64,000 nucleotides of DNA, taken from Candidatus Parcubacteria bacterium (GTDB lineage: Bacteria; Patescibacteriota; Minisyncoccia; Phycocordibacterales; CAIJYI01). The notes below the pieces were generated by a model. That model made no database searches, had not been told where the DNA came from, and saw nothing but the letters and a program-made list of their open reading frames with translations. Numbering within the stretch: position 1 is the stretch's first letter; the number at the start of each line of letters is the position of its first letter. Made by a program: the position numbers and the translations under genes. Positions 19,664-56,581 of the stretch are shown piece by piece. The DNA lies in assembly GCA_026395595.1 (NCBI GenBank), contig JAPLYL010000002.1, positions 122,111 to 186,110 of the forward strand, given 5' to 3'.

Positions 19664-19689
19664 TTTGTCGTGTCCTTTAAGGAAATTTA

Positions 19690-19956: not shown

Positions 19957-20029
19957 GCTTTATTTTTTAAAAATTATCGTGGAGCAGTACTATTTGTACA
20001 GCTCCGCGATAATTTTTAAAAAATAAAGC
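19957..20029. repeat. 29-bp inverted repeat (1 mismatch) with a 15-bp spacer
   Basis: GCTTTATTTTTTAAAAATTATCGTGGAGC ... GCTCCGCGATAATTTTTAAAAAATAAAGC. Confidence 0.6.
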
Positions 20030-20127
20030 AAATTCTTGCCCTGCCGTAGCTTTAGCGAAGGAGGGTCATCGAAAAATCCTCGCTCTTTGTTTTGTTGTGT
20101 TTACAGGTGATTCTGAACCATAAGCCT

Positions 20128-20267
20128 CTGAATCCAAAAACTCCTTTTTCCCATCCAAATAACCCCTCCCGTCATGCCGGGCTTGACCCGGCATCCACGT
20201 AGTTAAGCGGTATTTCATAGATCCCGGGTCAAGACCGGGATGACGACTGAGAGTTTTTGGATTCAAG
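20128..20267. mobile_element. MITE/REPIN-like element, copy 1 (terminal inverted repeat TGAATCCAAAAACTC plus two inverted core hairpin units)
   Basis: Left end CTGAATCCAAAAACTCC; core units CGTCATGCCGGGCTTGACCCGGCATCCACG and ATCCCGGGTCAAGACCGGGATGACGA; right end GAGTTTTTGGATTCAAG; the ORF track's 20066..20266 ORF lying over it is spurious. Confidence 0.6.
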
Positions 20268-20351
20268 GATAAGCTTTTTTGACTTAAGGCACAATATCAA
20301 TTACTATCTATGTTGGAAACACTGTATTTTTACTGCAAAAAGGAGTAGATT

Positions 20352-20639
20352 ATGCAACTTGCTATAGATATCCTTAAACGAATCAATTTATTTTATGTAA
20401 ACTACGGAAGAAATTCCAACGAAAAAGTTCTTATCACCTATTTTAACATGACACAGGGTCAAAGTGCGGAAAGCGTTCAAAACTCTTTGAACAAATTGTT
20501 TCAAAAGGATTTGATTACGCGAGCATCCTCGGGAGAAAAAGAGGAAATAAGCACTGACATTATCCCAACATCATACACCCTTGGATTATTGGATGATTAT
20601 ACAGTTGAAGAGATTTTCTTTAATAGAATCCAAAAATAA
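20352..20639 (+). CDS. hypothetical protein
   Basis: 95-aa ORF inside the MITE-flanked island, followed by a hairpin terminator (~20663-20692). Confidence 0.4.
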   Translation: MQLAIDILKRINLFYVNYGRNSNEKVLITYFNMTQGQSAESVQNSLNKLFQKDLITRASSGEKEEISTDIIPTSYTLGLLDDYTVEEIFFNRIQK

Positions 20640-20696
20640 GGCTAGGGGCCTTCCGTAAATACAAAAACGCGACCAATCGGCCGCGTTTTTTAACAT

Positions 20697-20960
20697 TTAT
20701 TGATAGATCTCATGCGAACCTATTTTTAATAAAAATACCGTATTTTCTTCCCCGTACTCAAAAATGATTCGAAATTTATAATTTACTGAAAAACTATAAA
20801 AACCAGACAATTGACCGCCAAGTTTATGAACTTTTAACAATTTATGGTTTCCTTGTTCCTTAAAAAGTTCAATTTTTTCAATCGCCTCGTCTTGAAGCGC
20901 TATCGGAAGTGATTTCCATTGGCGGATAAAGAGAGGAGCATAAGCAATATCTAATTCCAT
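20697..20960 (-). CDS. RelE/ParE-superfamily toxin (type II toxin-antitoxin)
   Basis: 87 aa; the C-terminal SFSVNYKFRIIFEYGEENTVFLLKIGSHEIYQ fits the RelE/ParE/YafQ-like pattern; it lies immediately downstream of the RHH antitoxin gene. Confidence 0.7.
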   Translation of the reverse strand: MELDIAYAPLFIRQWKSLPIALQDEAIEKIELFKEQGNHKLLKVHKLGGQLSGFYSFSVNYKFRIIFEYGEENTVFLLKIGSHEIYQ

Positions 20961-20970
20961 AAAAAGTATA

Positions 20971-21192
20971 TTACCCTAGTTGTTGAGAAAGCTCTCTTAT
21001 ATCCCCCCGCATTGCTTTACCTGCGTGAATTTCTTGCTGTGCCTTGAGAACATCGCTTACCGCCTCATCTTCAGCGAGAAGACGGAGCGCTTGTCTTACT
21101 ACCTCGGCTTTATTTGAAGCCCGGCCTTTCTTTACAAAAGAATCAATAAATTCTTCAAGAGCTGGGTTTAATGGAACAGAAAGAGTACTCAT
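20971..21192 (-). CDS. ParD-like ribbon-helix-helix antitoxin
   Basis: 73 aa; MSTLSVPLNPALEEFIDSFVKKGRASNKAEVVRQALRLL is typical of ParD/COG3609 antitoxins; 10-nt gap to the toxin gene. Confidence 0.7.
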   Translation of the reverse strand: MSTLSVPLNPALEEFIDSFVKKGRASNKAEVVRQALRLLAEDEAVSDVLKAQQEIHAGKAMRGDIRELSQQLG

Positions 21193-21262
21193 AGTAATAA
21201 TGTATTATATAATAATATGATACTATCATATTTCATTTTTTTGTTACCGTCAAGTCATAAGA

Positions 21263-21513
21263 CTGTGAATCCAAAAACTCTTCGTTCGTCATCCTCGCGA
21301 ATGCGGGGATCCACGTCGTTAAGTCATACTCTGGAGCACCACAAGAGTATTTCCATTTTTATAGTCGCTTCGCTCCTTATACTACAAGAGTATTTCCATT
21401 TTTATAGTCGCTTCGCTCCTTAAAAATTAGGTCAAAATTAGGTCGCCCCGTATTCGCGAGGATGACGATTTTGGGATATTTTAGTCCAAGGAAACGAGTT
21501 TTTGGATTCACAG
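21263..21513. mobile_element. MITE/REPIN-like element, copy 2 (with an internal 2 x 39-bp tandem repeat)
   Basis: Ends are CTGTGAATCCAAAAACTC / GAGTTTTTGGATTCACAG; cores CGTCATCCTCGCGAATGCGGGGATCCACG and its inverted partner; the direct repeat ACAAGAGTATTTCCATTTTTATAGTCGCTTCGCTCCTTA occurs twice (21332-21413). Confidence 0.6.
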
Positions 21514-21531
21514 ACATTAGTCACAGAAACC

Positions 21532-23223
21532 TTATTTAACCCCGTGTTTCTTGCGTATTTCAGTAAGTTCTTGTTCCTCAGCCTCAGCTTTTGCCTCTTT
21601 CCCTTCTTCTCCAAGTTTTTTAAGCTCTGATTCCGGAAGTTTTATAAGTTCTTGAGTGCGTTTCTCAAGATATTCTGCTGTGTTGAGGTTTGGATCTTCT
21701 AAAACCTCCTCCAGGAGCGCGTGCAGGATAAGTCCAAGTTTTGGTCCGGGTGTTTCATGTGTAACCTCCATTATTCTCGTACCATCAATTTTGAGCATTC
21801 CGACGGAAACAGGTGCACGCATCGCTTCTTCTATCATCGCCTCGTATTTTCGTAAACGATAGGGTTTTTCAACCGGTCTTCCCATTCCAATACGGTCACA
21901 TGCCCTTATTTTCATAAGATCCCACACATTTTCCGGTCCGACATTCGCAACAATCCTTCTTACTGCTGAAAGCGTTATCTTTTCCACATCTGAGAAGAAA
22001 AGATGATATTTTACCAGAGATGAAACCGTATCGGAAAGTTTCACGGGAAACCTTAATCGTTCCATTATCTTCTTTGAAACCCTTCCACCAACGACGTCAT
22101 GCCCGTAAAACGTCCAATTGTCCTTCTCTTTAGACCATCGGCGTGTTTCCGGCTTGGAAATATCGTGCAGCAAAGAGCCTAAACGGATATGAAGAGGCCA
22201 ATTATGCCTCGCCGCATTATCAAGAGCGCGAAGGTTATGTTCCCAGACCGTATAGATATGACTCCCGTTTTGTTCCACACCAATCCCCTTTTCCAGTTCC
22301 GGGACGATAAATCGCAATAAACCAAGCTCATGAGTCAAAACGATACCGCTCATAGTATTCTCCGACATAACTATTTTTACAAATTCATCACGAATTCTTT
22401 CACATGAAACATGTTTCAGATTGTCGGAAAGCTGTTTTATGGCATCTTCCGTCTCTTTTTCTATAGTGAAACCCAGTTGGGTAGCAAAACGAACAGCGCG
22501 CAGTAAACGAAGAGCGTCTTCATTGAAACGGTCTTCCGGTTTCCCTATTGCCCTGACGATTTTGTCCTTTATATCAGATTGTCCTTTATAAAGGTCAACA
22601 ATAATACCCTCTTTTGGGTTGTATGCGAGTGCATTTATCGTAAAATCACGGCGTTTCAGGTCGTCTTCCAGTTTTTTACTGAAAATCACCGCATTCGGAT
22701 GCCTTTTGTCGCTATATTCCGATTCCATTCGGTAAGGCGTAACCTCTATAATAGTTGTTGTTTCATGTGTAACAGGGTTTTCCTCATTTTTTAATGTTTC
22801 ACATGTAACTATTTGATTGACCGCTCGCGCGGCTCGCTGTGGCGTAGGAGTCAGTCTGGGGACTGACGGATGAAAACCTACGGTTTTCATACTTTCCCTT
22901 GTTTCACATGTAACATTTTCGTCACCACCATCTGATGTTTCATGTGTAACGGTCGGTCGGACGTGGTCTCTGACCCCGTCCGGAACATTTGTATTTACCA
23001 CAACCCCCACGGTTCCAAAGGTATTTTCATAGAAGGTTTTCTCAAAAAGCCCGATTATTTCTTCCGGTACGGCATTAGTGGTAACATCCCAATCTTTCGG
23101 TTCCCTTCCCAAAATAAGATCTCTTACACAGCCACCAACCAAATAAGCTTCAAAACCGGCGTCTTGAAGGGTTTCTGTTACACGTGTAACATATAATGGA
23201 ATATGGCTCTGTAAGTCTTTCAT
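21532..23223 (-). CDS. cca: CCA-adding tRNA nucleotidyltransferase (class II, with HD domain) carrying an ~85-aa in-frame insertion
   Basis: LVGGCVRD, RRDFTINA, ERxxxE and a C-terminal HD motif (LLHDISK); the insertion falls between the FGTVGVV and IEVTPYRMESEY blocks. Confidence 0.8.
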   Translation of the reverse strand: MKDLQSHIPLYVTRVTETLQDAGFEAYLVGGCVRDLILGREPKDWDVTTNAVPEEIIGLFEKTFYENTFGTVGVVVNTNVPDGVRDHVRPTVTHETSDGGDENVTCETRESMKTVGFHPSVPRLTPTPQRAARAVNQIVTCETLKNEENPVTHETTTIIEVTPYRMESEYSDKRHPNAVIFSKKLEDDLKRRDFTINALAYNPKEGIIVDLYKGQSDIKDKIVRAIGKPEDRFNEDALRLLRAVRFATQLGFTIEKETEDAIKQLSDNLKHVSCERIRDEFVKIVMSENTMSGIVLTHELGLLRFIVPELEKGIGVEQNGSHIYTVWEHNLRALDNAARHNWPLHIRLGSLLHDISKPETRRWSKEKDNWTFYGHDVVGGRVSKKIMERLRFPVKLSDTVSSLVKYHLFFSDVEKITLSAVRRIVANVGPENVWDLMKIRACDRIGMGRPVEKPYRLRKYEAMIEEAMRAPVSVGMLKIDGTRIMEVTHETPGPKLGLILHALLEEVLEDPNLNTAEYLEKRTQELIKLPESELKKLGEEGKEAKAEAEEQELTEIRKKHGVK

Positions 23224-23283: not shown

Positions 23284-23355
23284 GCGCCCGTAGTGAAACG
23301 GATATCACAACGGTCTTCGAAACCGTTAGTCCAGGTTCGAGTCCTGGTGGGCGCA
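23284..23355 (+). tRNA. tRNA-Arg (anticodon TCG)
   Basis: I folded the cloverleaf by hand: acceptor GCGCCCG/TGGGCGC, anticodon loop CTTCGAA, T-loop TTCGAGT, discriminator A; CCA is not encoded. Confidence 0.85.
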
Positions 23356-23418
23356 CAAGAAATATATAAGTATTTTTTCTATTGAAAAAACTTTTATTTT
23401 TCGTATAATAGTGACATT

Positions 23419-23489
23419 GCGGGTATGGTTTAGTGGTAGAACATTTGCTTGCCAAGCAAAAGACGCGGTTTCGATTACCGCTACCCGCA
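23419..23489 (+). tRNA. tRNA-Gly (anticodon GCC)
   Basis: Acceptor GCGGGTA/TACCCGC, anticodon loop TTGCCAA, T-loop TTCGATT. Confidence 0.85.
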
Positions 23490-23496
23490 CAATGAG

Positions 23497-23524
23497 AAAA
23501 TACCGCCATGTGGCGGTATTTTCT
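23497..23524 (+). terminator. rho-independent terminator after the tRNA pair
   Basis: ATACCGCCA-TG-TGGCGGTAT followed by TTTT. Confidence 0.65.
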
Positions 23525-23525
23525 G

Positions 23526-23534
23526 TTATCCACA
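23526..23534 (+). promoter_or_regulatory. perfect DnaA box TTATCCACA
   Basis: Exact 9-mer; a second copy lies in reverse orientation at 23950-23958 (TGTGGATAA). Confidence 0.4.
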
Positions 23535-23567
23535 TAATTAAACTTTCTTTATTTTGTTCATTATTTT

Positions 23568-23891
23568 GTGTATACTAAAGATATGGAAATTAAAACTGAG
23601 TTTGAATCCGCTCTTATTTTACACAACATGCGCGAGTTCGTTATGGACAAACACAAGTTTGATGAATGCATACCGGAAAATATGAAAGAAGACCGAGAAT
23701 ACGGCTTTCTTGTGTCCGGACAGCGCAATTATTGGCTTTTGGGAAAGTTTCCTTTGCATGAAAAACGAGAAGATGGCGTCGTTTCAGCAGATCCGCGCGC
23801 TATTATTAATATCTTTGAAGTAACACATTTCATCGATAACGGACAGATTTGTACGCGAGGAAAATATAAAATACTCCAGATTGTGGGATAA
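23568..23891 (+). CDS. hypothetical protein
   Basis: 107-aa ORF followed by the terminator ACACCC-CTTATC-GGGTGT-TTTT (23915-23937). Confidence 0.4.
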   Translation: MYTKDMEIKTEFESALILHNMREFVMDKHKFDECIPENMKEDREYGFLVSGQRNYWLLGKFPLHEKREDGVVSADPRAIINIFEVTHFIDNGQICTRGKYKILQIVG

Positions 23892-24172
23892 TACTCATCT
23901 ACCATGACTCTTAAACACCCCTTATCGGGTGTTTTTCTATCCCCATAGATATGTAAAACTGTGGATAACTCTGTGTACATGTGTATAAAGGACACTTTTT
24001 TGAACCACTCGCAAGCATTCTTTTTTTGACCTTTTGTCAATAAATGTGGCTTAAAATAACACTATTTGCTTAGGTCATCAAGAGAAAAAGGGTAAAGTAC
24101 AAAAGGGAAAAATAGACGTTTCACATGAAACGTTGTTTTGTGAATTTCCTTTAAAAGGGGTATTATCTTTTT

Positions 24173-24700
24173 ATGTCAAAGACCGAGAAACAAGAAACAG
24201 GGGATATTGGAGAGAAAATAGCGGGACTTTTTTTGAAAACCAAAGGGTTTACCGTTATTGGAACGAATTACCGAAAACCATGGGGAGAAATCGATATTAT
24301 TGTTCAGAAAAAAGGAAAGATTCATTTTATTGAAGTAAAAACCGTAAAAACAAGAGAAAATCAAAACCGATTAGACAAAGGACTTCCCTTAAGGAGGAGC
24401 GGTGAGCGACAAGGAAAGGGGAGTCTTTTGGGAGCGATTATTTTAGGAAAGTTTTTACCGCAGGAAAGATCCTATGCCATCAAAGAAATTTTTGAAGGGG
24501 ACGGTGAAACGAAAGGATATCGCCCCGAGGATAATTTGCACCCATGGAAGCTTCAGCGGCTAAAACGGGCAATTATATCGTATTTGGAAGAAAAAAGGAT
24601 GTCAGAAGAAGACGACTGGCAATTTGACGCCGTTACCGTTCGTTTAAACGAAGAAAGGAAGACTGCTTTGGTTGAGTATTTGGGGGATATTATTCTTTAA
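24173..24700 (+). CDS. YraN-family (UPF0102) endonuclease-like protein with a central insertion
   Basis: GDIGEKIAGLFL...GEIDIIVQKKGKIHFIEVKTVKTR, and the C-terminal WQFDAVTVRL block. Confidence 0.65.
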   Translation: MSKTEKQETGDIGEKIAGLFLKTKGFTVIGTNYRKPWGEIDIIVQKKGKIHFIEVKTVKTRENQNRLDKGLPLRRSGERQGKGSLLGAIILGKFLPQERSYAIKEIFEGDGETKGYRPEDNLHPWKLQRLKRAIISYLEEKRMSEEDDWQFDAVTVRLNEERKTALVEYLGDIIL

Positions 24701-24764
24701 TCTTACTAAATAAATAAATACGTGATTTTTTCATTGGTTTATGGTAGAGTAATCAGGTGAAAGA

Positions 24765-24835
24765 CGGGGCGTAGTATACCGGTAGTACGTCTGCTTTGGG
24801 AGCAGATAGACCGAGTTCGATTCTCGGCGCCCCGA
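24765..24835 (+). tRNA. tRNA-Pro (anticodon TGG)
   Basis: Acceptor CGGGGCG/CGCCCCG, anticodon loop TTTGGGA, T-loop TTCGATT. Confidence 0.85.
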
Positions 24836-24846
24836 CAAAGAAAAAC

Positions 24847-45880: not shown

Positions 45881-46255
45881 ATGAAACAAGAAATAATCAC
45901 ACAACTTCATAAAAATTTTGAGGATTACGCGCAAAAGACCAAAAACGGATTTGAATTTTGGTATGCTCGCGATTTACAGATTTTGCTCGGCTATAATGAA
46001 TGGAGAAATTTTCAAAAAGTCATTGAAAAAGCGAAAATCGCTTGTAAAAATACCGGTTTATCGGTTGATGACCATTTTGTTGACGCCAACAAAATGGTCG
46101 GTGTCGGATCGGGGGCAAAGAGAGAAATAGACGACATTTCTCTCACTCGCCACGCTTGTTACTTCATTGCTCAAAACGGTGACCCGAGAAAAGAAGAAAT
46201 CGCTTTCGCTATGGCATATTTTTCCGTTCAAATGAGAAAACAAGGAAGTCATTGA
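45881..46255 (+). CDS. DinD/Bro-N-like protein, N-terminal fragment (probably truncated)
   Basis: FEFWYARDLQILLGYNEWRNFQKVIEKAKIACKNTGLSVDDHFVDANKMVGVGSGAKREIDDISLTRHACYFIAQNGDPRKEEIAFAMAYF resembles E. coli DinD, but the ORF stops at 124 aa and similarity continues in another frame. Confidence 0.55.
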   Translation: MKQEIITQLHKNFEDYAQKTKNGFEFWYARDLQILLGYNEWRNFQKVIEKAKIACKNTGLSVDDHFVDANKMVGVGSGAKREIDDISLTRHACYFIAQNGDPRKEEIAFAMAYFSVQMRKQGSH

Positions 46256-46416
46256 AAAAAGAATTGCAGAAAGGGTCTATTCTGGCTACAATTTTCGTGT
46301 TTGAGGCACTGGTAGGACGTCCCACATTTAGATTTTAAAGAATTTGCAAAAAATTTGCAAGTTTTTTTCTTTTGTGTATAATAAAGATACTTTAGACATA
46401 AGTTTAAGCAAAATAT

Positions 46417-47670
46417 ATGCAAATTTCACTTATAGAATTTTCAGTAGAAAACTTCAGCGTTTTTAAAGAAAAGGCAACACTTTCTATGGTGGCGCGGAAA
46501 AATGATAACCATACATTTGAATCAAATGGTGAAAACCTACTGAAAACCTCTTTTATTTATGGTCCGAATGCCTCAGGAAAAACCTCTCTTTTGGACGCTT
46601 TTGTGAATTTGAAAACGGGAATTTTGTTTTCTTCCAATATGAAAGAAAATTCAGAGTTGCCCTATAATCCGTTTTTGGCATCGGAAAACACCAAAACAAA
46701 GCCAGTTTGGTTTGAGTTGGTTTTTTCTGCACTTGGGGATCATGCCGGAATATATAGATATTCCTTCTCTTTCTTGCCGGATCATATTGTTACGGAGAAT
46801 TTTACTAAAATATCTATAACTGGGGTAGAGGAACAACTTATTTCGCGAACGGGGCAAGATATAATACTTTCGGGTTGGGGAGATGACGTACAAATTTTGC
46901 GTGACAAAGCGCGTAAGGAAACACTTTTCTTGTCTGTTGCGGCACAATTCAATAATAAACTTGCCCTAAGTTTTGTGGAGGCGTTAAAAAATGTGAATAT
47001 CATTTCAGGCGTTACTTATGCAACCTATCAGCAATTCACTATAAAAAAATTCAAAGATGATCCGCTATACAAAGAAAGTATTTTAAAATACTTAAAAACT
47101 GCCGACTTTTGTATTTCCGGCGGTCGAACAAAAGAAATTGACATTCCATCTTTAGAAAACGTTAAAGATGAGCCAGATATGTTTTCTGCGGTTAAACGAA
47201 TGATAAAACACACCGCTTTGTTTTTCGAGCATCCTGTGTTTGGTAAAAACAACGAACCGGTCGGTGTGTTCGAGCTGTCTCTTGAAGAAGAGTCAACCGG
47301 TACACAAAATTTTCTTTCTATGCTTGGACCAATCATTAACACTCTTGAAACAGGTAAAGTTCTTGCCATAGACGAATTTGATAACAGCTTGCATCCGCTT
47401 TTGACAAAATTTATTGTCGATCTTTTTGAATCATCTGAGACAAATAAACACAACGCTCAACTTGTCGTAACGACACACGACACAAGTTTACTTTCGTATC
47501 GCGATGATTTTATCAAAGATCAATTTTGGTTTACCGATAAAGATGAATTTGGTTCAGCTCGGCTGTTTTCTCTTGCTGAATTTGATATAAGAAATGATAC
47601 TGAATTTGCGAAAAAATATCTGGAAGGTCGATTTGGCGCTCTGCCGTTTATCGGTTCCGTAAAAAAGTAA
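46417..47670 (+). CDS. AAA_21/ABC-type ATPase (OLD / AbiLi / AriA-like)
   Basis: Walker A GPNASGKTS near the N-terminus, Walker B/D-loop LAIDEFDNSLHP, and H-loop VVTTHD. Confidence 0.75.
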   Translation: MQISLIEFSVENFSVFKEKATLSMVARKNDNHTFESNGENLLKTSFIYGPNASGKTSLLDAFVNLKTGILFSSNMKENSELPYNPFLASENTKTKPVWFELVFSALGDHAGIYRYSFSFLPDHIVTENFTKISITGVEEQLISRTGQDIILSGWGDDVQILRDKARKETLFLSVAAQFNNKLALSFVEALKNVNIISGVTYATYQQFTIKKFKDDPLYKESILKYLKTADFCISGGRTKEIDIPSLENVKDEPDMFSAVKRMIKHTALFFEHPVFGKNNEPVGVFELSLEEESTGTQNFLSMLGPIINTLETGKVLAIDEFDNSLHPLLTKFIVDLFESSETNKHNAQLVVTTHDTSLLSYRDDFIKDQFWFTDKDEFGSARLFSLAEFDIRNDTEFAKKYLEGRFGALPFIGSVKK

Positions 47671-47674
47671 AGGA

Positions 47675-48298
47675 ATGTCTGTTTTTCAACGCAAACGCGA
47701 TACCCGTAAGATTCGCAAAGTAATTCGGATATACACGGAAGGTACAAAAACGGAGCCGAATTATTTCGGCTCGATAAAAGATGAATTGCGAATATCTGAA
47801 ATAGATATTCAAATTCAAGGGGTGCGAGGATTTAACAATCATACTTTACCGCTCGTTGGGTCGGTGATTGAAAGAAAAAAAGAGGAAGAAAAAAATAACG
47901 ATTTTGAAACGGAATGGTGGGTTGTTTTTGATAAAGATGATTTTCCTGATTTTAATAGTGCTATTGATTTGGCACAAAAACACGGCATTAACGTTGTCTA
48001 TTCCAACGAGTGTTTTGAATTATGGTTTATTCTCCATTTTGAGTTTTTGCAGACTTCTCTCGGAAGGAATAATTTTGAACCAAAGTTATCAAAGTTGCTC
48101 GGCAGAAAATATGAAAAGAAGAGTTCGGATATTTACGATCTGATAAAAGATAAAGAATCCAACGCGATTCGTTACGCAAAAAAGCTGGAAAAAATGCATG
48201 ATGATGAAAAAGTGAGTTCTCCGGAACAAAGAGTTCCATCAACTTTAGTCTATAAACTGGTCGAAAGATTACGATCACTAAAAACCGAAAGAGAATAG
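47675..48298 (+). CDS. RloB-like (Toprim-like) protein
   Basis: N-terminal IYTEGTKTEPNYF matches the RloB signature (CEGxTExxYF); starts 5 nt after the ATPase stop. Confidence 0.7.
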   Translation: MSVFQRKRDTRKIRKVIRIYTEGTKTEPNYFGSIKDELRISEIDIQIQGVRGFNNHTLPLVGSVIERKKEEEKNNDFETEWWVVFDKDDFPDFNSAIDLAQKHGINVVYSNECFELWFILHFEFLQTSLGRNNFEPKLSKLLGRKYEKKSSDIYDLIKDKESNAIRYAKKLEKMHDDEKVSSPEQRVPSTLVYKLVERLRSLKTERE

Positions 48299-48302
48299 TT
48301 TT

Positions 48303-48887
48303 ATGACCGCCAAAACCACAAATCGCCATATTAAAATTGTTAATAAAGCAAAGCAAAAAATCAAAGAACTTCTTGAAGATCCGAATTGTGTTTGGAGAAC
48401 CATGAGAATACTTAAGGGGCACACAACGGGATTATCCGAACAAGAAATCCTTGATATTTTGTCGAATCTTGGAGCAACGAGTTCTGTCGGAGAAAAAGGT
48501 GAAAAAATATGGAAGTTACATTCCCGTGGCGATAATGATACCCACAAACAAAAAAAGCAATCTCGAAATAAAATTATTTCTCACTCTGACTATTGGAAAA
48601 ATATTTGGTCCCAATGTTCCAAAATTAAATTCAGATACGTTATAATTTCCATGTTGTTAGTTTCTGCATATCTGGGTTACATAAAATTTTCTCCCGAGGT
48701 AAGCACTCCTCTTGGTAAATTTGCATTTAACACAAGCGAATCAAATAAAGTTCTTAGTTCGTCGGTTTTATCTGCTGATATAAACCCAAAAAAATGGACG
48801 TTTCTGTTTTTGGGTTGGTCTCAAGTATTGATTACCGTAAACCCTTATTCAATGTTCAAAAGAAATGGGAAGGATACAAAGGATTAA
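48303..48887 (+). CDS. hypothetical protein, predicted wHTH N-terminus plus one TM
   Basis: Starts 5 nt after the RloB stop; TM segment FRYVIISMLLVSAYLGYIKF. Confidence 0.45.
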   Translation: MTAKTTNRHIKIVNKAKQKIKELLEDPNCVWRTMRILKGHTTGLSEQEILDILSNLGATSSVGEKGEKIWKLHSRGDNDTHKQKKQSRNKIISHSDYWKNIWSQCSKIKFRYVIISMLLVSAYLGYIKFSPEVSTPLGKFAFNTSESNKVLSSSVLSADINPKKWTFLFLGWSQVLITVNPYSMFKRNGKDTKD

Positions 48888-49147
48888 ATACAACAAAAGA
48901 ACAAGCTATACTCTTTAATTCTGGAGATACTGGGTCAGGAAAAATTTGGGCAGATTTGGAAAGTACGCATCTGTATGACGGAAAAAATGTTAAAATCACG
49001 TGCGTTTTTGGAGGAGAATGGGCTCAAAGAATTGAAGTCCTTGGAGAAAAAGAACATGGAACCCGCGAATTAACTTTTTCGGGAATCATTAATGGTGATT
49101 TGTCACAAGGAAATCTCCCCGTGTTAGAAGATTGTAAGTTGTATTAA
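48794..49147 (+). CDS. hypothetical protein (overlaps the previous ORF by 94 nt in the +2 frame)
   Basis: Its ATG follows an A7 run directly; the translation is plausible and beta-rich; the start is uncertain. Confidence 0.35.
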   Translation: MDVSVFGLVSSIDYRKPLFNVQKKWEGYKGLNTTKEQAILFNSGDTGSGKIWADLESTHLYDGKNVKITCVFGGEWAQRIEVLGEKEHGTRELTFSGIINGDLSQGNLPVLEDCKLY

Positions 49148-49529: not shown

Positions 49530-50873
49530 TTATTCTTCCGTTTTTTCCTCTTTTTTCTTTTTGGTTTTCTTCGGTTCTTCTTTTGCCGTTTCGGCGGAGG
49601 CGGATTCCACTTCTCCTTTCAGTACTTCTTCTACCACCTCTTTTTCCGTGATGACTTCTTCGGTTGGGGTTTCATTTATTGATTCTTCAAATTCTTTCAC
49701 TTCCTTCTCTTCTTCCAGTTCTTTTTCTTCCTCCTCTACTGCTTCTTCCGTTTCTTTGGTGGAATGAATGTCTATTTTCCAGCCGGTCAATTTGGCGGCC
49801 AGTCTCGCGTTTTGACCTCCTTTTCCGATAGCGAGGGAAAGCTGGTCTTCGGCGACGATGACTGAGGCACGCTTTTCTTCGGGGCGGAGTTCTACGGAGA
49901 GGATTTTGGCGGGAGCGAGAGAATCGGAGATGAATTTCTTTGCATCTTCCGACCATTCTATAATATCTATCTTTTCTCCTCCGAGTTCGCTCATGACGGT
50001 GGTTACTCGGACGCCTCTTTGTCCGACACAGGAACCGATCGGGTCAATGTGCTCATCGTTTGAATACACGGCGATTTTTGCGCGTGAACCCGGTTCGCGG
50101 GCGATATTTTTGATCTCAACGACCCCACTCATGACTTCTGGCGCTTCCATCTTGAAAAATTCTTCAATGAGTTTTGGGTGGGTGCGGGAAAGGCGGAGGT
50201 TTATTCCTCTCGGTGTGTCTTCAACGCGATAAAGAAAGGCTTTGATGCGCTCTCCTTGGCGATATTTTTCACGGGAGATCTGTTCTTCGTAAGGAAGAAT
50301 AGCGGTCGTTTTTCCGAGGTCTACGAAGATATTCCCCTTTTCAATTCTTTGAACCATTCCGTTGACGACTTCTCCTTCTTTTTTGCCGAATTCGTCCATC
50401 GTCGTGCTTTTCTCCGCTTCACGGATTTTCTGAATAATGACCTGTTTTGCGGTTTGTGCGGCAATGCGTCCGAAATCTTCTTTGGTTTCAAGAGGGAAGA
50501 CGAGTTCTTCTTCAACGGCGGCATCGCGTTTGATTTTCTTGGCATCTTCAAGAAGAATATGGTGTTCGCTGTTGAAGCGAGTACGAAGGTCGTTTTCGTC
50601 TTTTTCTTCCTCAATCGGTTCACCATTTTCATCAAGCGGAGCCGGCATTTTAACGATGGATTCGTCAACGATGACCTTTACCTGCGAGAAATCGGTCGCT
50701 CCTGTGTCCAAATCAAATTTGGCGCGGACGATTTGCCCCTTTTTACCGTATTCTTTTTTGTAGGCGGCAGCGAGAGACATTTCTATCGCTTCCAAGATCT
50801 TTTCTTTGGAAATGCCTTTTTCTTCCTCCATTTGCTCAAGTGCCGAGCGGAGCGTTTTAAGATCAAATAACAT
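49530..50873 (-). CDS. nusA: transcription termination/antitermination factor NusA
   Basis: N-terminal domain, then S1 and two KH domains, and an acidic/K-rich C-terminal tail. Confidence 0.9.
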   Translation of the reverse strand: MLFDLKTLRSALEQMEEEKGISKEKILEAIEMSLAAAYKKEYGKKGQIVRAKFDLDTGATDFSQVKVIVDESIVKMPAPLDENGEPIEEEKDENDLRTRFNSEHHILLEDAKKIKRDAAVEEELVFPLETKEDFGRIAAQTAKQVIIQKIREAEKSTTMDEFGKKEGEVVNGMVQRIEKGNIFVDLGKTTAILPYEEQISREKYRQGERIKAFLYRVEDTPRGINLRLSRTHPKLIEEFFKMEAPEVMSGVVEIKNIAREPGSRAKIAVYSNDEHIDPIGSCVGQRGVRVTTVMSELGGEKIDIIEWSEDAKKFISDSLAPAKILSVELRPEEKRASVIVAEDQLSLAIGKGGQNARLAAKLTGWKIDIHSTKETEEAVEEEEKELEEEKEVKEFEESINETPTEEVITEKEVVEEVLKGEVESASAETAKEEPKKTKKKKEEKTEE

Positions 50874-51019
50874 ATATTTGTTGTTACACTTATAATTTTG
50901 ACAATTTTGTTAAAAAAATGAGCCCGTACGGGACGGACTCAAGGTATGAATATATAGTACTCTGTGATGCCATTTTGTCAAGGAACATGCTTGTCAACAG
51001 TTATCCACTGTTTATCATA

Positions 51020-51048
51020 TTGACGAATACATGACAGGAAGTATAATA
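51020..51048 (+). promoter_or_regulatory. near-consensus sigma70 promoter TTGACG-17-TATAAT
   Basis: TTGACG at 51020-51025 and TATAAT at 51043-51048; the DnaA-box-like TTATCCACT at 51001-51009 lies just upstream; AGGAGA SD and ATG at 51055. Confidence 0.5.
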
Positions 51049-51054
51049 GGAGAC

Positions 51055-51795
51055 ATGCACCCCATACAACAAAAGATACTCTCTCTGGCGAAGAGTCAAA
51101 ATATCGCCGGGCTTACACTGCGGAAGATTGGCGAACTTATCAGTGAGCCGGACGCTCCGCAAAAGATCAAACACCATATTGATAAACTGAAAGAAAAAGG
51201 ATTATTGCTTTCTGGAGAAGGTGGCAAGCATCTGAAACCCGCTTCTGGTGGAATAGACAAAATGTCCAGTCTTGTATCTCTGCCGATACTCGGCTCTGCG
51301 AACTGCGGGGAAGCAACGATGTATGCCGACGGGGCGATTGAAGGCTATCTGAAAGTATCGCTTCGCATTTTGGGAGAAAAATTCAGAAATAAATTGGATG
51401 ACCTCTTTGTTTTGCGCGCTTCCGGAAATTCCATGAATCGCGCGAATGTTCACGGTAAAACCATTGACGATGGCGATTATGTTATCGCGGAAAGAATTCA
51501 TGAAGCGCCGAAAAGCGGGGAATATATCGTCTCCATTATTGAAGGTTTGGCGAATATCAAAAAATTCCTGATTGATACCAAAAACGAGCATATTATTCTC
51601 GCTCCCGAATCAAGTTTGGATTTTTCACCGATTTATATACATAAAGAAGACTATTCCGGCTATTTTGTTGGTGGCCGAGTAGTAGATGTCATCAAAAAAC
51701 CGGATGAATTCATGGATTCCTCTGCTGGCGATATCCTCAAATACGGCAAACCGATACGAGAGGTAGATTACTCAAGCAAGAAAAAGAAAAAATAA
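51055..51795 (+). CDS. LexA-like repressor (wHTH plus S24 peptidase domain)
   Basis: N-terminal HTH; C-terminal LRASGNSM (catalytic Ser) and ...KK (Lys) S24 motifs; the ORF track's start at 51031 would contain the -10 element. Confidence 0.7.
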   Translation: MHPIQQKILSLAKSQNIAGLTLRKIGELISEPDAPQKIKHHIDKLKEKGLLLSGEGGKHLKPASGGIDKMSSLVSLPILGSANCGEATMYADGAIEGYLKVSLRILGEKFRNKLDDLFVLRASGNSMNRANVHGKTIDDGDYVIAERIHEAPKSGEYIVSIIEGLANIKKFLIDTKNEHIILAPESSLDFSPIYIHKEDYSGYFVGGRVVDVIKKPDEFMDSSAGDILKYGKPIREVDYSSKKKKK

Positions 51796-52895
51796 TGGAA
51801 ACGAACAAGAAAGTTTCTTTAAATAGTAATTTTACGGAATTTTTACTGTATACTACTCCAAACCATAAGGTAAAGGTTGAAATTTTCTTGCGTGATGAAA
51901 ATATCTGGCTGACGCAAAAATTAATTGCACGGCTTTTTGATTGTTCTTCTGATAATGTTTCTTTTCACTTGAAAAACATTTTTGAAAGCGGTGAATTGCT
52001 GGAAAATTCAGTTACCGAGGAATTCTCGGTAACTGCCGGTGATGGTAAAAAGTATAAGACAAAACATTATAATTTAGATGCGATTATTTCGGTAGGGTAT
52101 CGAGTAAATTCCGCCAATGCGACTCAGTTTCGTATCTGGGCGACCGAACGCTTGAAAGAATATATTATCAAGGGGTTTACTATGGACGATGAACGCTTGA
52201 AAAACCCAAATACGATCTTTGGTAAGGATTATTTTGAAGAACAACTGGCAAGAATTAGAAATATCCGATCTAGCGAAAGACGAATGTATCAGAAAGTTAC
52301 CGATATCTATGCTGAATGTAGCGCTGATTATTCTCCAAATAGCGATATAACGAAAGAATTTTTTGCAACAATTCAAAACAAACTTCATTTTGCAATAACC
52401 GGTAAAACTGCCGCGGAAATTATTTATGAAAGAGTAAAAAATGAAAAACCGAATATCGGACTTACTTCGTGGAAAAACTCTCCAAAAGGAAGAATCCGAG
52501 AAACCGATGTTATCATTGCCAAAAATTACTTAAACGAAAAAGAACTTGACCACCTGAATAGAATTGTCACTATGTACCTTGATTTTGCGGAAATGCAAGC
52601 GAAACGAGGCATTCTTATGAGAATGAAAGATTGGACATCAAAACTGGATGCATTTCTGAAGTTTAACGAGCAGGAAATTTTATCCAACGCAGGAAAAATC
52701 AGCCATGAAGTTGCTGAAGCTTTAGCTCTTGAAGAATACGAAAAATACAGGATAGAACAGGATAAAAATTATATTTCTGATTTTGACAGAGAAGTGAAGA
52801 AAATTTTAGATGTAAAGAAAAAACATGCCAAATTTTCGGAAAGTGATAATTTTTTTGATAAAAATGTTGTAAAAGATAAAAATGAAGGAAATTAA
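51795..52895 (+). CDS. RhuM-family (virulence protein RhuM-like) protein
   Basis: HYNLDAIISVGYRVNSANATQFRIWATERLKEY is the RhuM core signature; its start overlaps the LexA-like stop (ATAATGG). Confidence 0.7.
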   Translation: METNKKVSLNSNFTEFLLYTTPNHKVKVEIFLRDENIWLTQKLIARLFDCSSDNVSFHLKNIFESGELLENSVTEEFSVTAGDGKKYKTKHYNLDAIISVGYRVNSANATQFRIWATERLKEYIIKGFTMDDERLKNPNTIFGKDYFEEQLARIRNIRSSERRMYQKVTDIYAECSADYSPNSDITKEFFATIQNKLHFAITGKTAAEIIYERVKNEKPNIGLTSWKNSPKGRIRETDVIIAKNYLNEKELDHLNRIVTMYLDFAEMQAKRGILMRMKDWTSKLDAFLKFNEQEILSNAGKISHEVAEALALEEYEKYRIEQDKNYISDFDREVKKILDVKKKHAKFSESDNFFDKNVVKDKNEGN

Positions 52896-53012
52896 CAAAA
52901 TTAAACAACTTAAAAATGTTATTAAAGATGCAATAGACGAGCGTTTTAATACAGTGATAAGGTAGAAGTTAAACTGGAAGAGATCATAAATAAAGCTGTA
53001 CTTGAATATGAA

Positions 53013-53315
53013 ATGCTTCTTACTGAAGATGTAAAGCAGGTACTTAAAAATAATTATAAAATAGACTTTTATAACCGTGGATATCTTGGTGATAAAATAA
53101 AAATTTACGAAGCCACCGTTGGGAAAAATGAGTTCAGTAAATTATTGTGGAAAATTAATATGATACGTAATGATTTGAGTCACACACGTATTGATAAACT
53201 TTTTTATAAAAAGCAGGATCTATCTCTAAGAGAAACAAAAGAGGTTTTACTTACTGATTTATTTACTCAAATGATAAACCACGGTGAACCATCCTTAAAA
53301 GTGAATTCAAAATAA
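53013..53315 (+). CDS. hypothetical protein
   Basis: 100-aa ORF. Confidence 0.35.
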   Translation: MLLTEDVKQVLKNNYKIDFYNRGYLGDKIKIYEATVGKNEFSKLLWKINMIRNDLSHTRIDKLFYKKQDLSLRETKEVLLTDLFTQMINHGEPSLKVNSK

Positions 53316-53319
53316 TTTT

Positions 53320-54141
53320 ATGCACAACAATTTAAAAAACCTTGCTATTTTTGAAGGGAATCATATTCGCCGGCTGTGGGACGGGGAAAAAGAACTGTGG
53401 TATTTTTCAATTATCGATGTGATTCAAGTTTTAACAGAAAGCCCGAGACCAAGAAAATACTGGAATGCTTTAAAAACAAAGTTAAAAAACGAAGGAAGTC
53501 AGTTGTCCCAGAAAGTGGGACAACTGAAAATGGAATCTCTTGACGGAAAAATGTACCTTACTGATGTGGCGGATACAGAAACGCTTTTACGACTTATCCA
53601 ATCAACGCCTTCTCCAAAAGCTGAGCCATTTAAGCTTTGGTTGGCAAAGGTTGGATATGAAAGAATGAGGGAAATGGGCGATCCGGAAATAGCGCTTAAC
53701 CGAAGCCGTGTCTATTGGAGAGAGCAGGGGAGAAGTGAAAAATGGATTGAACAAAGAATGACAGGACAAGAAACGAGAAATAAACTCACTGATTACTGGA
53801 GCGAGCACAAAGTAAAGAAAGGCGAAGAATTTGCCATATTGACGAACATCATACATCAAGAATGGAGCGACATATCAGTAAAAGAACACAAAGGACTGAA
53901 AGGTTTAAAAACACAAAATCTTCGTGATCATATGAGTGAAGAAGAATTGATTTTTACCGCGCTGGCTGAACTTTCCACAAGAAGAATTGCAGAAACAGAT
54001 AAGGCCGAAGGATTGGAAGAAAACAAAATTCCGGCAAAAAAAGGCGGAAAAATCGCAAAAGACGCGCGCCTCACTTTAGAAGAAAAAACAGGGAGCAGCG
54101 TCATCACTGGTAAAAACTTTTTGTTGCCATCTAAAAAATAA
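53320..54141 (+). CDS. Bro-N/DinD-like domain protein (antirepressor-like)
   Basis: NHIRRLWDGEKELWYFSIIDVIQVLTESPRPRKYW...AEPFKLWLAKVGYE is Bro-N-like; 273 aa. Confidence 0.55.
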   Translation: MHNNLKNLAIFEGNHIRRLWDGEKELWYFSIIDVIQVLTESPRPRKYWNALKTKLKNEGSQLSQKVGQLKMESLDGKMYLTDVADTETLLRLIQSTPSPKAEPFKLWLAKVGYERMREMGDPEIALNRSRVYWREQGRSEKWIEQRMTGQETRNKLTDYWSEHKVKKGEEFAILTNIIHQEWSDISVKEHKGLKGLKTQNLRDHMSEEELIFTALAELSTRRIAETDKAEGLEENKIPAKKGGKIAKDARLTLEEKTGSSVITGKNFLLPSKK

Positions 54142-54252
54142 ATTTTATACAATCTTTAAAACAACCATCTGTGAAAAAATTCTCGGATAAAAACCTTCTT
54201 TTTGGTTCAGATGTCCGGTTTTATCGGGCATCTGAACAACGTATGTGTCGTT

Positions 54253-54279
54253 CAGTTGGTCACAAAATGTGACCAACTG
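54253..54279. terminator. perfect 12-bp-stem hairpin between convergent genes
   Basis: CAGTTGGTCACA-AAA-TGTGACCAACTG. Confidence 0.4.
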
Positions 54280-54481
54280 AAATTTATGTCTATAAACGTT
54301 GTAATTTTTTATATAATACCATTTCTAAAAAACTACTTTATATTTTAAATCAATCGTGCTAACCGAAATTACTACCCAAGGTCTCTCCTTTCCCCGTCGT
54401 TTCGCTTCGCTACACTCCTCCTTAAGGAAAGACCTTTGTCCGTAATTTCTTGAAATGTTAATGAGTTTTTTAGAAATGGTA

Positions 54482-56581
54482 TTAGATAAGAATAATTCTT
54501 GCATCCAGTACACAGGCACCGTTTCCTTGAGAGAAAACTTTGAGAGGGTTGATATCCACTTCTGAAATCTCAGGGAAATCAATAACGAGGGAAGAAAGTC
54601 TTCCTAACATTTCAACGAGAGTATCCACATCAAGAGGATCTTGTCCGCGAACTCCGTCAAATATCTTTTGCGCTTTAAGGGAACGAACCATTCTCCATGC
54701 GTCATCTTCGGTGATAGGCGCCAATCCAAAAGTAACATCCTGCAAAACTTCCACGTATATTCCGCCGAATCCGACCATAACCGCTTCGCCAAGAGCAGGA
54801 TCTCGTTTTGCTCCCAAAATAATTTCAAACCCACGTCTTTCCGCCATTTCCTCCATAAGAACCCCTTCAATCTTCGCATTCGGAAACTTTTCAAGAACAT
54901 CATGAATAATACGATCGTATTCTTTTCCTGCATCTTCTGGAGGAACGTTGATACGAACCCCCCCTGCCTCGCTTTTGTGTAAAATATCTTCGGAAGCGAT
55001 TTTCATGACAAGTGTCTTTCCAATCTTTTTGGCTTTCAAGAGAGCGTCTTCCCTATCTCTTGCGAATTCAGTAGCAAAAACAGGAAACCCATAGGCGGAA
55101 AAAACCTGCAAAGCTTCATATTCAAAAAGCCATTTTCTTCCTTTCTCTCGAGCCTTTTTTAAAATCATGCTCACCGCCTCGCGGTCTACGTTTTCAAACA
55201 AAAATCGTTTCGGATCTTCTCTGTTAAAATAATCAGAATACAAGGCGAGTTTAGATAATGCATTTGCGGATTCCTCCGGATACTCAATCGTAGCCACACC
55301 ACCTTCGCGTAAAACTTCAATTCCTTTTTCAACAGAAGTTCCTCCCATAAAACAAGCGATGATAGGCTTACCGGTTTGTTTTTTTGCTTGTACGATAGCG
55401 TGTGCCGTTTCTTCAACTTCGGTCATGGTTTGGTGTGTCAAAATAGCAAGCGCCATATCTATGTCAGGGTCTGACATAACAGCATCAAGAGATTTTCGAT
55501 ATCGCAGAGCATCGGCATCTCCAACCACATCTACCGGATTTCCGACGCCGGCTGTTTTAGGAAGAAATTCGGCAAGTGCTGTTCGCGTTTCTTTTGAAAA
55601 TTCTCCAACAATAAGCCCGCGAAGGGCTGCTTCATCGGTAGCGAGAACGCCAGGACCGCCGGCATTAGTTACGATACCAATTCTTTTTCCTTTCGGAATC
55701 GGATTTCGGGAAAATGCTTTTATGTAGTCAAACAATTCAGAAACTTTATCCGCGCGAATAATCCCCGCCTGTAAGAAGAAGGCTTTGTATGATTCCTCTG
55801 CCCCCGCCAAAGCTCCCGTATGAGAAGCACTCGCTCCCGCACCGGCATTGGTTCTTCCTGCTTTAAGTGCAATAATCGGTTTTCTTTTTCCCTCATGCCG
55901 AGCCTTCTGTATAATTTCAATAATTTCGTGAGGATGAGTCAAGTCTTCCAGATACATAGCGATAACGGCAGTTTCGGAATCGTTCAGAAGGAATTCAATC
56001 ATTTCCCTTTCGCTCACCTGAGCTTTATTTCCAATGCTGACGAATTTGGAAAATCCTATGCCAAGTTTTTCAGCATAATCTAAAACAGCAACACACAAAG
56101 CACCGCTCTGAGAAAAAAATCCGACGGAACCGGCTTTCGGCATAACACGAGCAAAAGAAGCATTCATGCGTATACCGGGATTGATGACGCCGAGGCAATT
56201 CGGACCGACAAGAGTTATTCCGTGTTCATTACAAAAAGAAGCAAGTTCATTTTCAGATTGCGCATCTCCCGTTTCTTTGTATCCTGCCGTAATAACAATA
56301 GCCGCCTTTATTCCCAGTTTTTCCGCTTCTTTCAAGGAAATCATGACATCGGAAGGATGGACGACAAATATACCAAGATCAATCGGTTTTCCGATAGAGG
56401 ATACCGTTCCGTAACAAGTGCGGCCGAGAATAACATCGGTCTTTGGATTCACCGGAAAGATTTCTCCTTGGTATCCTTGTTCAATAAGATTTTTTAAAAC
56501 GCCGTAACCGACATGTGTTTCTCTGCGAGACGCCCCGATAACGGCAATGGATTTCGGATCAAAAACAGAATCAAAATTCAT
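54482..56581 (-). CDS. acetate--CoA ligase [ADP-forming], fused alpha/beta
   Basis: N-terminal CoA-binding domain (SIAVIGASRRETHVGYGV), succinyl-CoA-synthetase-like domains and a C-terminal ATP-grasp; 699 aa. Confidence 0.85.
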   Translation of the reverse strand: MNFDSVFDPKSIAVIGASRRETHVGYGVLKNLIEQGYQGEIFPVNPKTDVILGRTCYGTVSSIGKPIDLGIFVVHPSDVMISLKEAEKLGIKAAIVITAGYKETGDAQSENELASFCNEHGITLVGPNCLGVINPGIRMNASFARVMPKAGSVGFFSQSGALCVAVLDYAEKLGIGFSKFVSIGNKAQVSEREMIEFLLNDSETAVIAMYLEDLTHPHEIIEIIQKARHEGKRKPIIALKAGRTNAGAGASASHTGALAGAEESYKAFFLQAGIIRADKVSELFDYIKAFSRNPIPKGKRIGIVTNAGGPGVLATDEAALRGLIVGEFSKETRTALAEFLPKTAGVGNPVDVVGDADALRYRKSLDAVMSDPDIDMALAILTHQTMTEVEETAHAIVQAKKQTGKPIIACFMGGTSVEKGIEVLREGGVATIEYPEESANALSKLALYSDYFNREDPKRFLFENVDREAVSMILKKAREKGRKWLFEYEALQVFSAYGFPVFATEFARDREDALLKAKKIGKTLVMKIASEDILHKSEAGGVRINVPPEDAGKEYDRIIHDVLEKFPNAKIEGVLMEEMAERRGFEIILGAKRDPALGEAVMVGFGGIYVEVLQDVTFGLAPITEDDAWRMVRSLKAQKIFDGVRGQDPLDVDTLVEMLGRLSSLVIDFPEISEVDINPLKVFSQGNGACVLDARIILI

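Follow-up and report, generated by a model that had tools for sequence, protein, structure and literature searches.

A LexA-type S24 repressor gene heads a putative damage-inducible operon carrying defence or toxin candidates in Candidatus Parcubacteria

LexA repressors are known to head operons that also carry an effector, as in lexA-dinF of Escherichia coli, lexA-sulA of pseudomonads and the lexA2-imuA-imuB-dnaE2 cassettes, and the toxin–antitoxin (TA) genes yafNO, dinJ-yafQ, hokE and tisB are regulated by LexA. In the Candidate Phyla Radiation (CPR)/Patescibacteria, which are uncultured and have tiny genomes, the regulation of stress responses and phage defence is almost unknown. The locus analysed here lies in a 64,000-nucleotide stretch of a Candidatus Parcubacteria bacterium (assembly GCA_026395595.1, contig JAPLYL010000002.1, positions 122,111 to 186,110 of the forward strand; hereafter the window, numbered from its first nucleotide). 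It comprises, on the + strand, genes for an S24 regulator (51055–51795, 246 aa) and a RhuM-family protein (51795–52895, 366 aa), a disrupted gene of a HEPN-like (Rx4H) family (52882–53315) and a gene for a Bro-N/DinD-like protein (53320–54141, 273 aa). With moderate confidence, the locus was interpreted as a LexA-like operon, autoregulated and probably induced by DNA damage, at which genes of defence or toxin type come to be inserted.

Similarities to the LexA/SOS system are the combination of winged helix-turn-helix (wHTH) and S24 domains, the Ser/Lys dyad, a scissile X-Gly pair, operator-like repeats at the regulator's own promoter and a downstream effector gene in a shared, predicted operon. 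The S24 protein differs from LexA in an extra 30-aa C-terminal tail, a sub-threshold equivalog score and a predicted cleavage site of Cys-Gly, as in UmuD, where LexA has Ala-Gly. The direct and inverted TGTCAA repeats differ from the motifs listed in PMC8565304, the cargo consists of defence or toxin candidates and not of repair or division genes, and DnaA boxes recur in the control region. Immunity modules of temperate phages that combine a CI-type S24 repressor with Bro or Ant antirepressors are similar in placing an S24 repressor beside Bro-N or KilA-N genes and in the derepression by RecA that would be expected; unlike these, the present locus is chromosomal, has a regulator with a DNA-binding domain predicted to be LexA-type and host-like GC content, and is found outside any phage context.

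The S24 protein (Pfam Peptidase_S24, 1.9e-10) was searched against 5.8 billion proteins, yielding 1611 homologues. The top 120 share 49–93% identity, are 222–279 aa long except for one 178-aa fragment, and come, where a source is named, nearly all from Patescibacteria/Parcubacteria. Family members were found in many differing chromosomal contexts across Patescibacteria (90 loci, given below as L numbers where they need to be told apart). In 25 aligned homologues the helix SPQKIKHH and the residues N83-C84-G85, G124-x-S126 and N167-I-K169 are invariant. On the family profile the predicted dyad of Ser126 (GNSM) and Lys169 (NIKK) aligns to Ser119 and Lys156 of LexA, and N83-C84-G85 aligns with the LexA scissile site, A84-G85; the last residue of E. 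coli LexA falls at family position 217, which leaves residues 218–246 as an additional tail, ending in KKKKK. The best PDB matches of the profile were LexA chains, with the wHTH recognition helix aligning to LexA residues 38–55. An AlphaFold2 (AF2) model (predicted local distance difference test score, pLDDT, 78.6) showed an S24 barrel together with a winged HTH of three helices; confidence in the tail was low (pLDDT <50). Full-length Thermotoga and E. coli LexA were the top Foldseek matches of the model, both domains being aligned over about 225 columns, and the CI repressors of lambda and 186 ranked below LexA.

The LexA/CI-like wHTH-S24 protein that an earlier note had recognized in this DNA was thus confirmed, with Ser126/Lys169 and Cys84-Gly85 both invariant in the family; since Ser126 and Lys169 are retained throughout the alignment, loss of the dyad, which the note had named as grounds for rejecting its proposal, was not seen. 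The GC content of the S24 gene (0.43) matches that of the flanking housekeeping genes, and values of 0.35–0.37, 0.28–0.30 and 0.36–0.39 were obtained for RhuM, the 100-aa open reading frame (ORF) of the HEPN-like remnant and Bro-N, respectively. As judged from its sequence, predicted fold, GC content and range of chromosomal contexts, the S24 protein is a resident LexA-type repressor and not a phage CI.

For analysis of the control region, the 130 nt 5' of the S24 start were compared in 83 non-identical loci of the 90 collected, with 487 upstream regions of other long ORFs from the same loci as the control set. The hexamer TGTCAA or its reverse complement TTGACA occurred 165 times upstream of S24, at 15.3/kb compared with 0.49/kb elsewhere in the loci (31-fold), and at least two copies were present in 60/83 S24 loci versus 7/487 control promoters. 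In the usual layout, direct TGTCAA copies (one, two or three) precede an inverted copy, and this inverted copy forms the −35 element; the half-site consensus is T-GTCAA-G/C. The commonest spacings are 9 or 17 nt between direct copies and 10 or 27 nt from the last direct to the inverted copy, the 27-nt spacing being found in 9 loci. The window matches this family layout, with putative operator half-sites on the + strand at 50976–50981 and 50992–50997 (the second 16 nt past the first and 27 nt before the inverted copy), TTGAC at 51020 and a partial copy, ATGACA, at 51031–51036 inside the promoter spacer. Apart from a single site in L054, where it forms the upstream promoter of the S24 operon in the same locus, no cluster of at least three TGTCAA copies was found elsewhere in about 730 kb of loci. 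Because the compared regions share only the S24 gene, and its recognition helix is invariant, the repeats are the best candidate for the operator; bound by the S24 protein, they would occlude the −35 element.

The S24 promoter (51020–51047, + strand) consists of TTGACG (−35, 51020–51025) and TATAAT (−10, 51042–51047) and is the top sigma-70-like match of the region (11/12); it is conserved in L001 and L011, and its −35 element is itself the inverted copy of the TGTCAA repeat. The mechanically called S24 ORF opens at 51031; the homologues all begin with MH, which places the start at 51055. The −10 element ends 7 nt before this ATG, so a leaderless transcript is likelier than a start that depends on a Shine–Dalgarno (SD) sequence; the distance is 6–8 nt throughout the window clade (the closest relatives of the window S24 protein) and at most 12 nt in 25/73 family promoters. 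AGGAGA (51048–51053, + strand), which had been proposed as an SD sequence, leaves only 1 nt before the ATG, and the two closest relatives have AGTAGA (L001) and AATAGA (L011) in its place; it is probably fortuitous in that role, the S24 transcript probably being leaderless. The earlier note was otherwise accurate on this region except for distances: the promoter it described is real, with a spacer of 16 nt in place of 17, and the DnaA-box-like site, also a real and conserved feature, lies 10 nt and not 11 nt upstream of the −35 element.

This site, TTATCCACT (51001–51009, + strand, between the repeats and the −35 element), matches 8/9 positions of the DnaA box TTATCCACA (alternative consensus TTWTNCACA), with the mismatch at the last position. 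Exact copies of TTATCCACA are enriched about 80-fold upstream of the family. They were present in 15/83 S24 promoters versus 3/487 controls, and boxes with at most one mismatch in 36/83 S24 upstream regions (counted in S24 regions alone). The conservation of both features upstream across the 83 loci makes the promoter and the DnaA-box-like site more than chance occurrences. The boxes vary in place and orientation, lying between the repeats, in the 5' untranslated region or further upstream, which suggests a separate factor, presumably DnaA; a box in the control region probably adds an input from replication status. The palindrome AACAGT-N5-ACTGTT (50997–51013) around the DnaA-like box was considered as an operator and rejected, being conserved no further than L001. 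The Cheo-type LexA box (GAAC-N4-GTTC) was absent upstream of every family member examined, and no E. coli-type LexA box was found in the window.

Exact DnaA boxes were also located elsewhere in the window, at 19691–19709 (a tandem pair starting at 19691 and 19701), 23526 and 23960, in or around an ORF-poor segment (about 19664–21531) and a tRNA cluster (23284–24836). No dnaA gene was identified near the boxes between 19691 and 23960; a 563-aa ORF there (21532–23223) is of the CCA-adding/poly(A) polymerase type. On the minus strand of the S24 control region (50919–50981), a promoter-like TTGACA (50981)-16 nt-TACTAT (50954) was seen upstream of the nusA start at 50873, followed by a GC-rich hairpin and T-run (50941–50919). 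The hairpin, also conserved in L001, could be a terminator or attenuator in the nusA leader. Because this minus-strand site uses the first TGTCAA repeat as its −35 element, transcription of nusA might be affected by the S24 protein as well.

Gene order downstream of S24 was counted in dereplicated loci with enough downstream sequence. Long, tailed S24 forms (at least 240 aa, about 245 aa) were directly followed by a PemK/MazF gene in 35/42 cases, and short tail-less forms (205–230 aa), whose source genomes bear the labels Yanofskybacteria, Chitinophagaceae, Acidobacteria and Nitrospirales, in 0/37. The downstream PemK/MazF genes encode 92–123 aa and nearly always overlap S24 by 4 nt (ATGA). 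PemK-linked tails end in an acidic and aromatic ..EEvDYYENL (the final 12 residues carry a net charge of −4 to +1); the aligned members of the window clade have tails with a conserved DSS..D(I/V)LKYGKPI core and a lysine-rich end (net +3 to +7), and PemK is found in 0/7 window-clade loci. MazF toxins as a rule depend on an antitoxin encoded next to them, and because no other conserved small gene is present in the PemK loci, the tailed repressor is the sole antitoxin candidate there. The S24 protein of the PemK-bearing relatives probably has a second role, in which its tail neutralizes the toxin; the indirect evidence for this is the co-occurrence of tail and PemK, the predicted disorder of the tail and the difference in tail charge between PemK-linked and window-clade proteins. 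The window protein seems to have lost or changed this antitoxin function.

In most relatives, as in type II TA systems of the MazEF/PemIK type, MazF/PemK overlaps the stop of an autoregulated DNA-binding protein with a disordered acidic tail, the classic antitoxin arrangement, which would tie toxin release to DNA damage. The putative antitoxin, however, is a full LexA-type autoprotease and not a small MazE or PemI, and the window has no PemK/MazF, its place being taken by RhuM, which is antitoxin-free elsewhere. A literature search found nothing on a LexA-like antitoxin of MazF; a 2017 study of the Patescibacteria SOS network was outside its scope.

Other toxin- or defence-type genes occupy the same position; MazF, RhuM, DinD/Bro-N and KilA-N genes alike lie downstream of S24, essentially never upstream, across lineages. 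DinD equivalogs were found in L002 (after PemK, 370 bits) and L017 (378 bits; NF008573 cut-off 242), RhuM or RhuM-Fic genes in L004, L029 and L034, a Bro-N gene in L102 and, in L012, a KilA-N protein that matches PADLOC PDC-S22 (7e-125). The RhuM genes of L004 (6750–7736), L029 (6120–7133) and L034 (4059–4937) represent different subfamilies in unrelated Patescibacteria, one being Fic-fused and two following PemK. Insertion of RhuM genes into the S24 operon seems to have happened repeatedly.

Short S24 forms with 42–46% identity were also recorded at L069, L070, L073, L075 and L077 (Chitinophagaceae labels), L081–L083 and L086 (Acidobacteria) and L090 (Nitrospirales), with paired TGTCAA repeats kept upstream in the Chitinophagaceae, Nitrospirales and part of the Acidobacteria. 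Their presence in other phyla may reflect horizontal spread of the regulator with its operator or mis-binned contigs; in Bacteroidetes, the short form would differ from the CI-type ‘non-canonical LexA’ of PMC8565304. Two further suppositions about these forms were discarded. A metagenome-assembled genome thought to hold both a long and a short form did not, since L058 is a 92%-identical copy of L052 truncated by the contig end, and short forms thought to head mutagenesis cassettes (imuA/imuB/dnaE2, dinB) were found with Pfam to adjoin methylases, UDG, a ClpB-like ATPase and others.

At the window locus, all four ORFs with the domains claimed for them in the earlier note were present, those of S24, RhuM and Bro-N being confirmed by Pfam, and the reported overlap of the S24 stop with the RhuM start was seen as one base common to TAA and ATG (aaaTAATGg). 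RhuM matched Pfam Virulence_RhuM (PF13310, 4e-112) and the PADLOC candidate PDC-S05 (model PDLC04851, 1e-147). Its conservation is extreme, with 74–88% identity across the labels Parcubacteria, Saccharimonadales, Peregrinibacteria, WOR-1 and Proteobacteria. The nearest of them outside the clade (83–87% identity) have no S24 neighbour and adjoin AbiJ/GmrSD/methylase or unrelated genes, so that the S24–RhuM pairing is recent and local and not a conserved two-gene system. The AF2 model of RhuM was poor (pLDDT 48) because its 30-sequence alignment comprised sequences 74–88% identical, and PDB sequence searches returned no match for RhuM or the Bro-N protein. A toxin role has been proposed for the RhuM domain, for which fusion to Doc is frequent (PMC3710099). 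In E. coli, protection against T7, T5 and T4 was obtained with one PDC-S05/RhuM gene, an unrelated representative, which cut plating of T7 and T5 about 1000-fold (bioRxiv 10.1101/2024.09.26.614923).

The Bro-N protein (Pfam Bro-N, 1.4e-8) matched PADLOC PDC-S13 (model PDLC04920, 5e-121), a model that also matches the DinD of L017 (4e-10). It resembles E. coli DinD in having the same length, belonging to the same PADLOC group and showing weak C-terminal similarity (23% identity over 147 C-terminal aa, E = 5e-4). It differs in that its N-terminus is a Bro-N domain and in that no NCBIfam match was obtained, so that the DinD equivalog NF008573 (at least 242 bits) was not reached. In E. coli, dinD is a LexA-box gene (PMC6590174) and DinD helps to remove RecA filaments (PMC4849656). 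The matches to PDC-S05, PDC-S13 and, in L012, PDC-S22 are strong; these PADLOC candidates are defined as single genes in defence islands, whereas here they belong to one operon under an S24 repressor.

The ORF of 100 aa between RhuM and Bro-N (53013–53315), previously listed as a small unknown protein, is instead the remnant of a frameshifted gene. A word-indexed homologue search returned only the ORF itself; an exhaustive HMMER search found 47 proteins, mostly of 143–238 aa, which matched in their C-terminal halves. With the nearest of these, P0122 (159 aa, 60% identity), the alignment continues in frame beyond the ATG in the upstream direction, to about 52962, and the N-terminal sequence of P0122, MDKVKQLKSLLNTTTDDKFNRLIP, corresponds to an ORF of 27 aa in another frame (52882–52965, MKEINKIKQLKNVIKDAIDERFNTVI). 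Relative to P0122, about 20 residues are missing between the two pieces; because P0122 spans both in differing frames, the window copy was identified as an internally deleted, frameshifted remnant. An R-x4-H motif (IRNDLSH) is invariant in 28 homologues; the invariant residues of the family are this motif, in the form IRNDxSHNR, and a Tyr. The family had no Pfam match and weak matches to CARF-HEPN models (E ~1e-4) and HepS (E = 0.54), and from these features it is HEPN-like, not established as HEPN.

Comparison within the window clade gave a history of the cargo. The S24 protein of L011 is 95% identical to that of the window and is followed by a remnant of RhuM, internally deleted, fused to Bro-N; that of L001 (93%) is followed by RhuM and Bro-N, the HEPN-like segment being absent. 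Further relatives carry no cargo (L100/L101, 75%), Bro-N after a gap of 12 nt (L102, 73%), KilA-N and Bro-N (L012, 72%), or an operon without cargo in which the next + strand ORF follows 222 nt on (L013, 66%). These gene orders imply that Bro-N is the older and commonest cargo. By the same comparison, RhuM is an insertion between S24 and Bro-N, and a segment of about 490 bp (52816–53304), with HEPN-like sequence of the window order S24, RhuM, HEPN remnant, Bro-N, is a later one still; PemK was lost, and the tail end turned basic, in the window clade. The lower GC content of the cargo indicates horizontal acquisition around a resident regulator. Co-location of the genes in relatives, which the earlier note had anticipated, therefore holds in part: S24, RhuM and Bro-N stand together in L001 and, decayed, in L011, that is, in the nearest relatives only, while the closest homologues of RhuM lie away from S24 and most S24 relatives carry PemK/MazF.

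From the computed fold, motifs, operator-like repeats, gene-order statistics and record of insertions and deletions we infer DNA binding, RecA-dependent cleavage, induction, and defence or toxin activity, in the following sequence. An S24 dimer would bind the TGTCAA/TTGACA repeats around the −35 element, as their conservation suggests, and shut its own, probably leaderless operon, in which S24 is followed by RhuM, the inactivated HEPN-like gene and the gene for the Bro-N/DinD-like protein. Filaments of RecA on single-stranded DNA, formed when DNA is damaged or phage attacks, would, by analogy with LexA, trigger cleavage at Cys84-Gly85 by Ser126/Lys169. The operon would thereby be derepressed and RhuM and the Bro-N/DinD-like protein made. 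According to the family annotations, RhuM would serve in defence or as a toxic effector, and the DinD-like protein might act on RecA or DNA. Binding of DnaA, suggested by the enrichment of its boxes, would add an input from replication status. A wider proposal is held only tentatively: across Patescibacteria, one SOS-type repressor with an antitoxin tail might be both a RecA-cleavable switch and the neutralizer of a co-translated MazF RNase, with the DnaA boxes adding replication input, and the window might be a derived state that reuses the toxin position for RhuM and DinD-like candidates. Such an arrangement, if true, would be a damage/replication checkpoint or abortive-infection trigger made from LexA and a toxin.

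Other explanations of the locus were weighed against the damage-inducible operon. Were it a strict TA system, which we regard as unlikely, the S24 tail would bind and neutralize RhuM while the protein repressed the operon, and cleavage or degradation would free the toxin. The translational coupling of S24 and RhuM through the 1-nt overlap would suit such a system, as would the tail, which is predicted to be disordered in the manner typical of antitoxin C-termini and still has its DSS..DILKYGKPI core in the window clade, the fact that in relatives the tailed protein is the only antitoxin candidate for the coupled MazF/PemK, and the proposed toxin nature of RhuM (PMC3710099). RhuM need not be neutralized, however, because its 83–87% identical homologues stand alone as single-gene PDC-S05 with no obvious antitoxin; the tail is equally conserved in clade members that lack RhuM (L012, L013, L100, L102), and its end changed from acidic/aromatic to basic when PemK was lost. 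At the opposite extreme, the genes might be adjacent with no shared function, S24 being an SOS repressor of unlinked repair genes and the cargo a set of independent insertions with their own expression at a permissive intergenic site. RhuM is mobile (75–90% identity across phyla) and found in varied contexts, the cargo differs among close relatives and is missing from L100 and L013, and promoter-like sites occur inside the operon, though at about chance frequency. What makes this improbable is the tight spacing (S24 and RhuM overlap by 1 nt, the HEPN-like ORF and Bro-N are 4 nt apart, and in L102 a gap of 12 nt separates S24 from Bro-N), the recurrence of the same gene kinds in the same orientation downstream of S24, and the presence at this position, in L002 and L017, of DinD, a classical E. 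coli LexA target.

A remnant of a prophage or satellite immunity region, in which a CI-like repressor and Bro-N antirepressor-type genes were left after decay, is very unlikely. Phage immunity regions commonly contain Bro-N and KilA-N domains as well as S24 repressors, the Bro-N and S24 proteins match phrog_15286 and phrog_4 (repressor), respectively, the cargo has low GC, and a second low-GC insertion with AbiL genes and a Bro-N fragment lies across nusA. The regulator is nevertheless LexA-type and not CI-type, and it is conserved together with its operator in many unrelated chromosomal contexts with no integrase or structural genes. Among 2.9 million viral contigs only two full-length S24 matches were found, both to distant short forms, and none to the long form; this near absence, with the host-like GC, makes a prophage origin of the regulator unlikely. 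No att-like repeats or integrase, and no tRNA or Rfam family, were found at the locus borders. The suggestion of a prophage regulatory remnant was accordingly not supported. That of a stand-alone module with S24, RhuM and Bro-N genes under a strong promoter was supported, and no phage genes were present among the annotated surrounding ORFs.

Several points weigh against the damage-inducible LexA-like operon itself. The S24 protein scores 53.9 bits with TIGR00498, below the LexA equivalog cut-off of 110.95, for which reason it is called LexA-type and not LexA, and the Pfam scan did not detect the LexA_DNA_bind domain in it. RecA dependence, operator binding and induction are argued from analogy. 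TGTCAA is the reverse complement of the −35 consensus, and its enrichment could be partly a signal of promoter architecture; in the intergenic DNA of the 64-kb window no further cluster of at least three copies was present. The association of PemK with the long form (Fisher p = 8e-16) was calculated with no correction for phylogeny. Another, canonical LexA may exist in the same genome, RhuM or Bro-N may have internal promoters, and S24 and RhuM may have come together through a chance insertion, the pairing then having no significance for regulation.

The window locus is a mosaic and partly decayed example and not a new system by itself; the wider pattern of a tailed LexA-like protein coupled to MazF across Patescibacteria, with a putative TGTCAA operator and DnaA boxes, is of more interest. 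If the damage-inducible operon is correct, it would predict how operator and promoter are arranged for a LexA-type regulator that is widespread in Patescibacteria, and would link the RhuM, DinD/Bro-N and KilA-N candidates to DNA-damage signalling. The rule that the gene right after S24 is a toxin or defence candidate would help to find new effectors, and in the PemK-bearing relatives the idea that a self-cleaving repressor serves as antitoxin could be tested.

The operon is flanked by nusA (49530–50873, − strand) on the other side of the S24 promoter region and by the gene for ADP-forming acetyl-CoA synthetase (acs, 54482–56581, − strand), which is convergent with the Bro-N gene; the broader neighbours in the window annotation are nusA, acs, gltX, H+-PPase and IMPDH. 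Two hairpins between the convergent genes (54205–54237 and 54251–54281, + strand) probably mark the operon end. Across nusA from the S24 locus lies a second low-GC (0.34–0.38) insertion (45881–49147), which, besides two ORFs of unknown type, holds a 124-aa Bro-N fragment, AbiLi (46417–47670) and AbiLii/RloB (47675–48298). L011 lacks the insertion, its H+-PPase gene lying directly beside nusA, and L001 has different cargo and a transposase there; nusA is thus bordered by two variable defence-type regions. Beyond the hairpins, an element of about 190 nt (54300–54495) with 43-bp terminal inverted repeats (54306–54348 and 54450–54492) was found to fold as a long imperfect hairpin (−55.4 kcal/mol, z = −7.4) with no Rfam match. 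Its core (54357–54454) recurs at unrelated sites in L001 (2679–2768 and 2511–2563) and L012 (1160–1224), and the element is a repeat resembling miniature inverted-repeat transposable elements (MITE-like) or a structured RNA.

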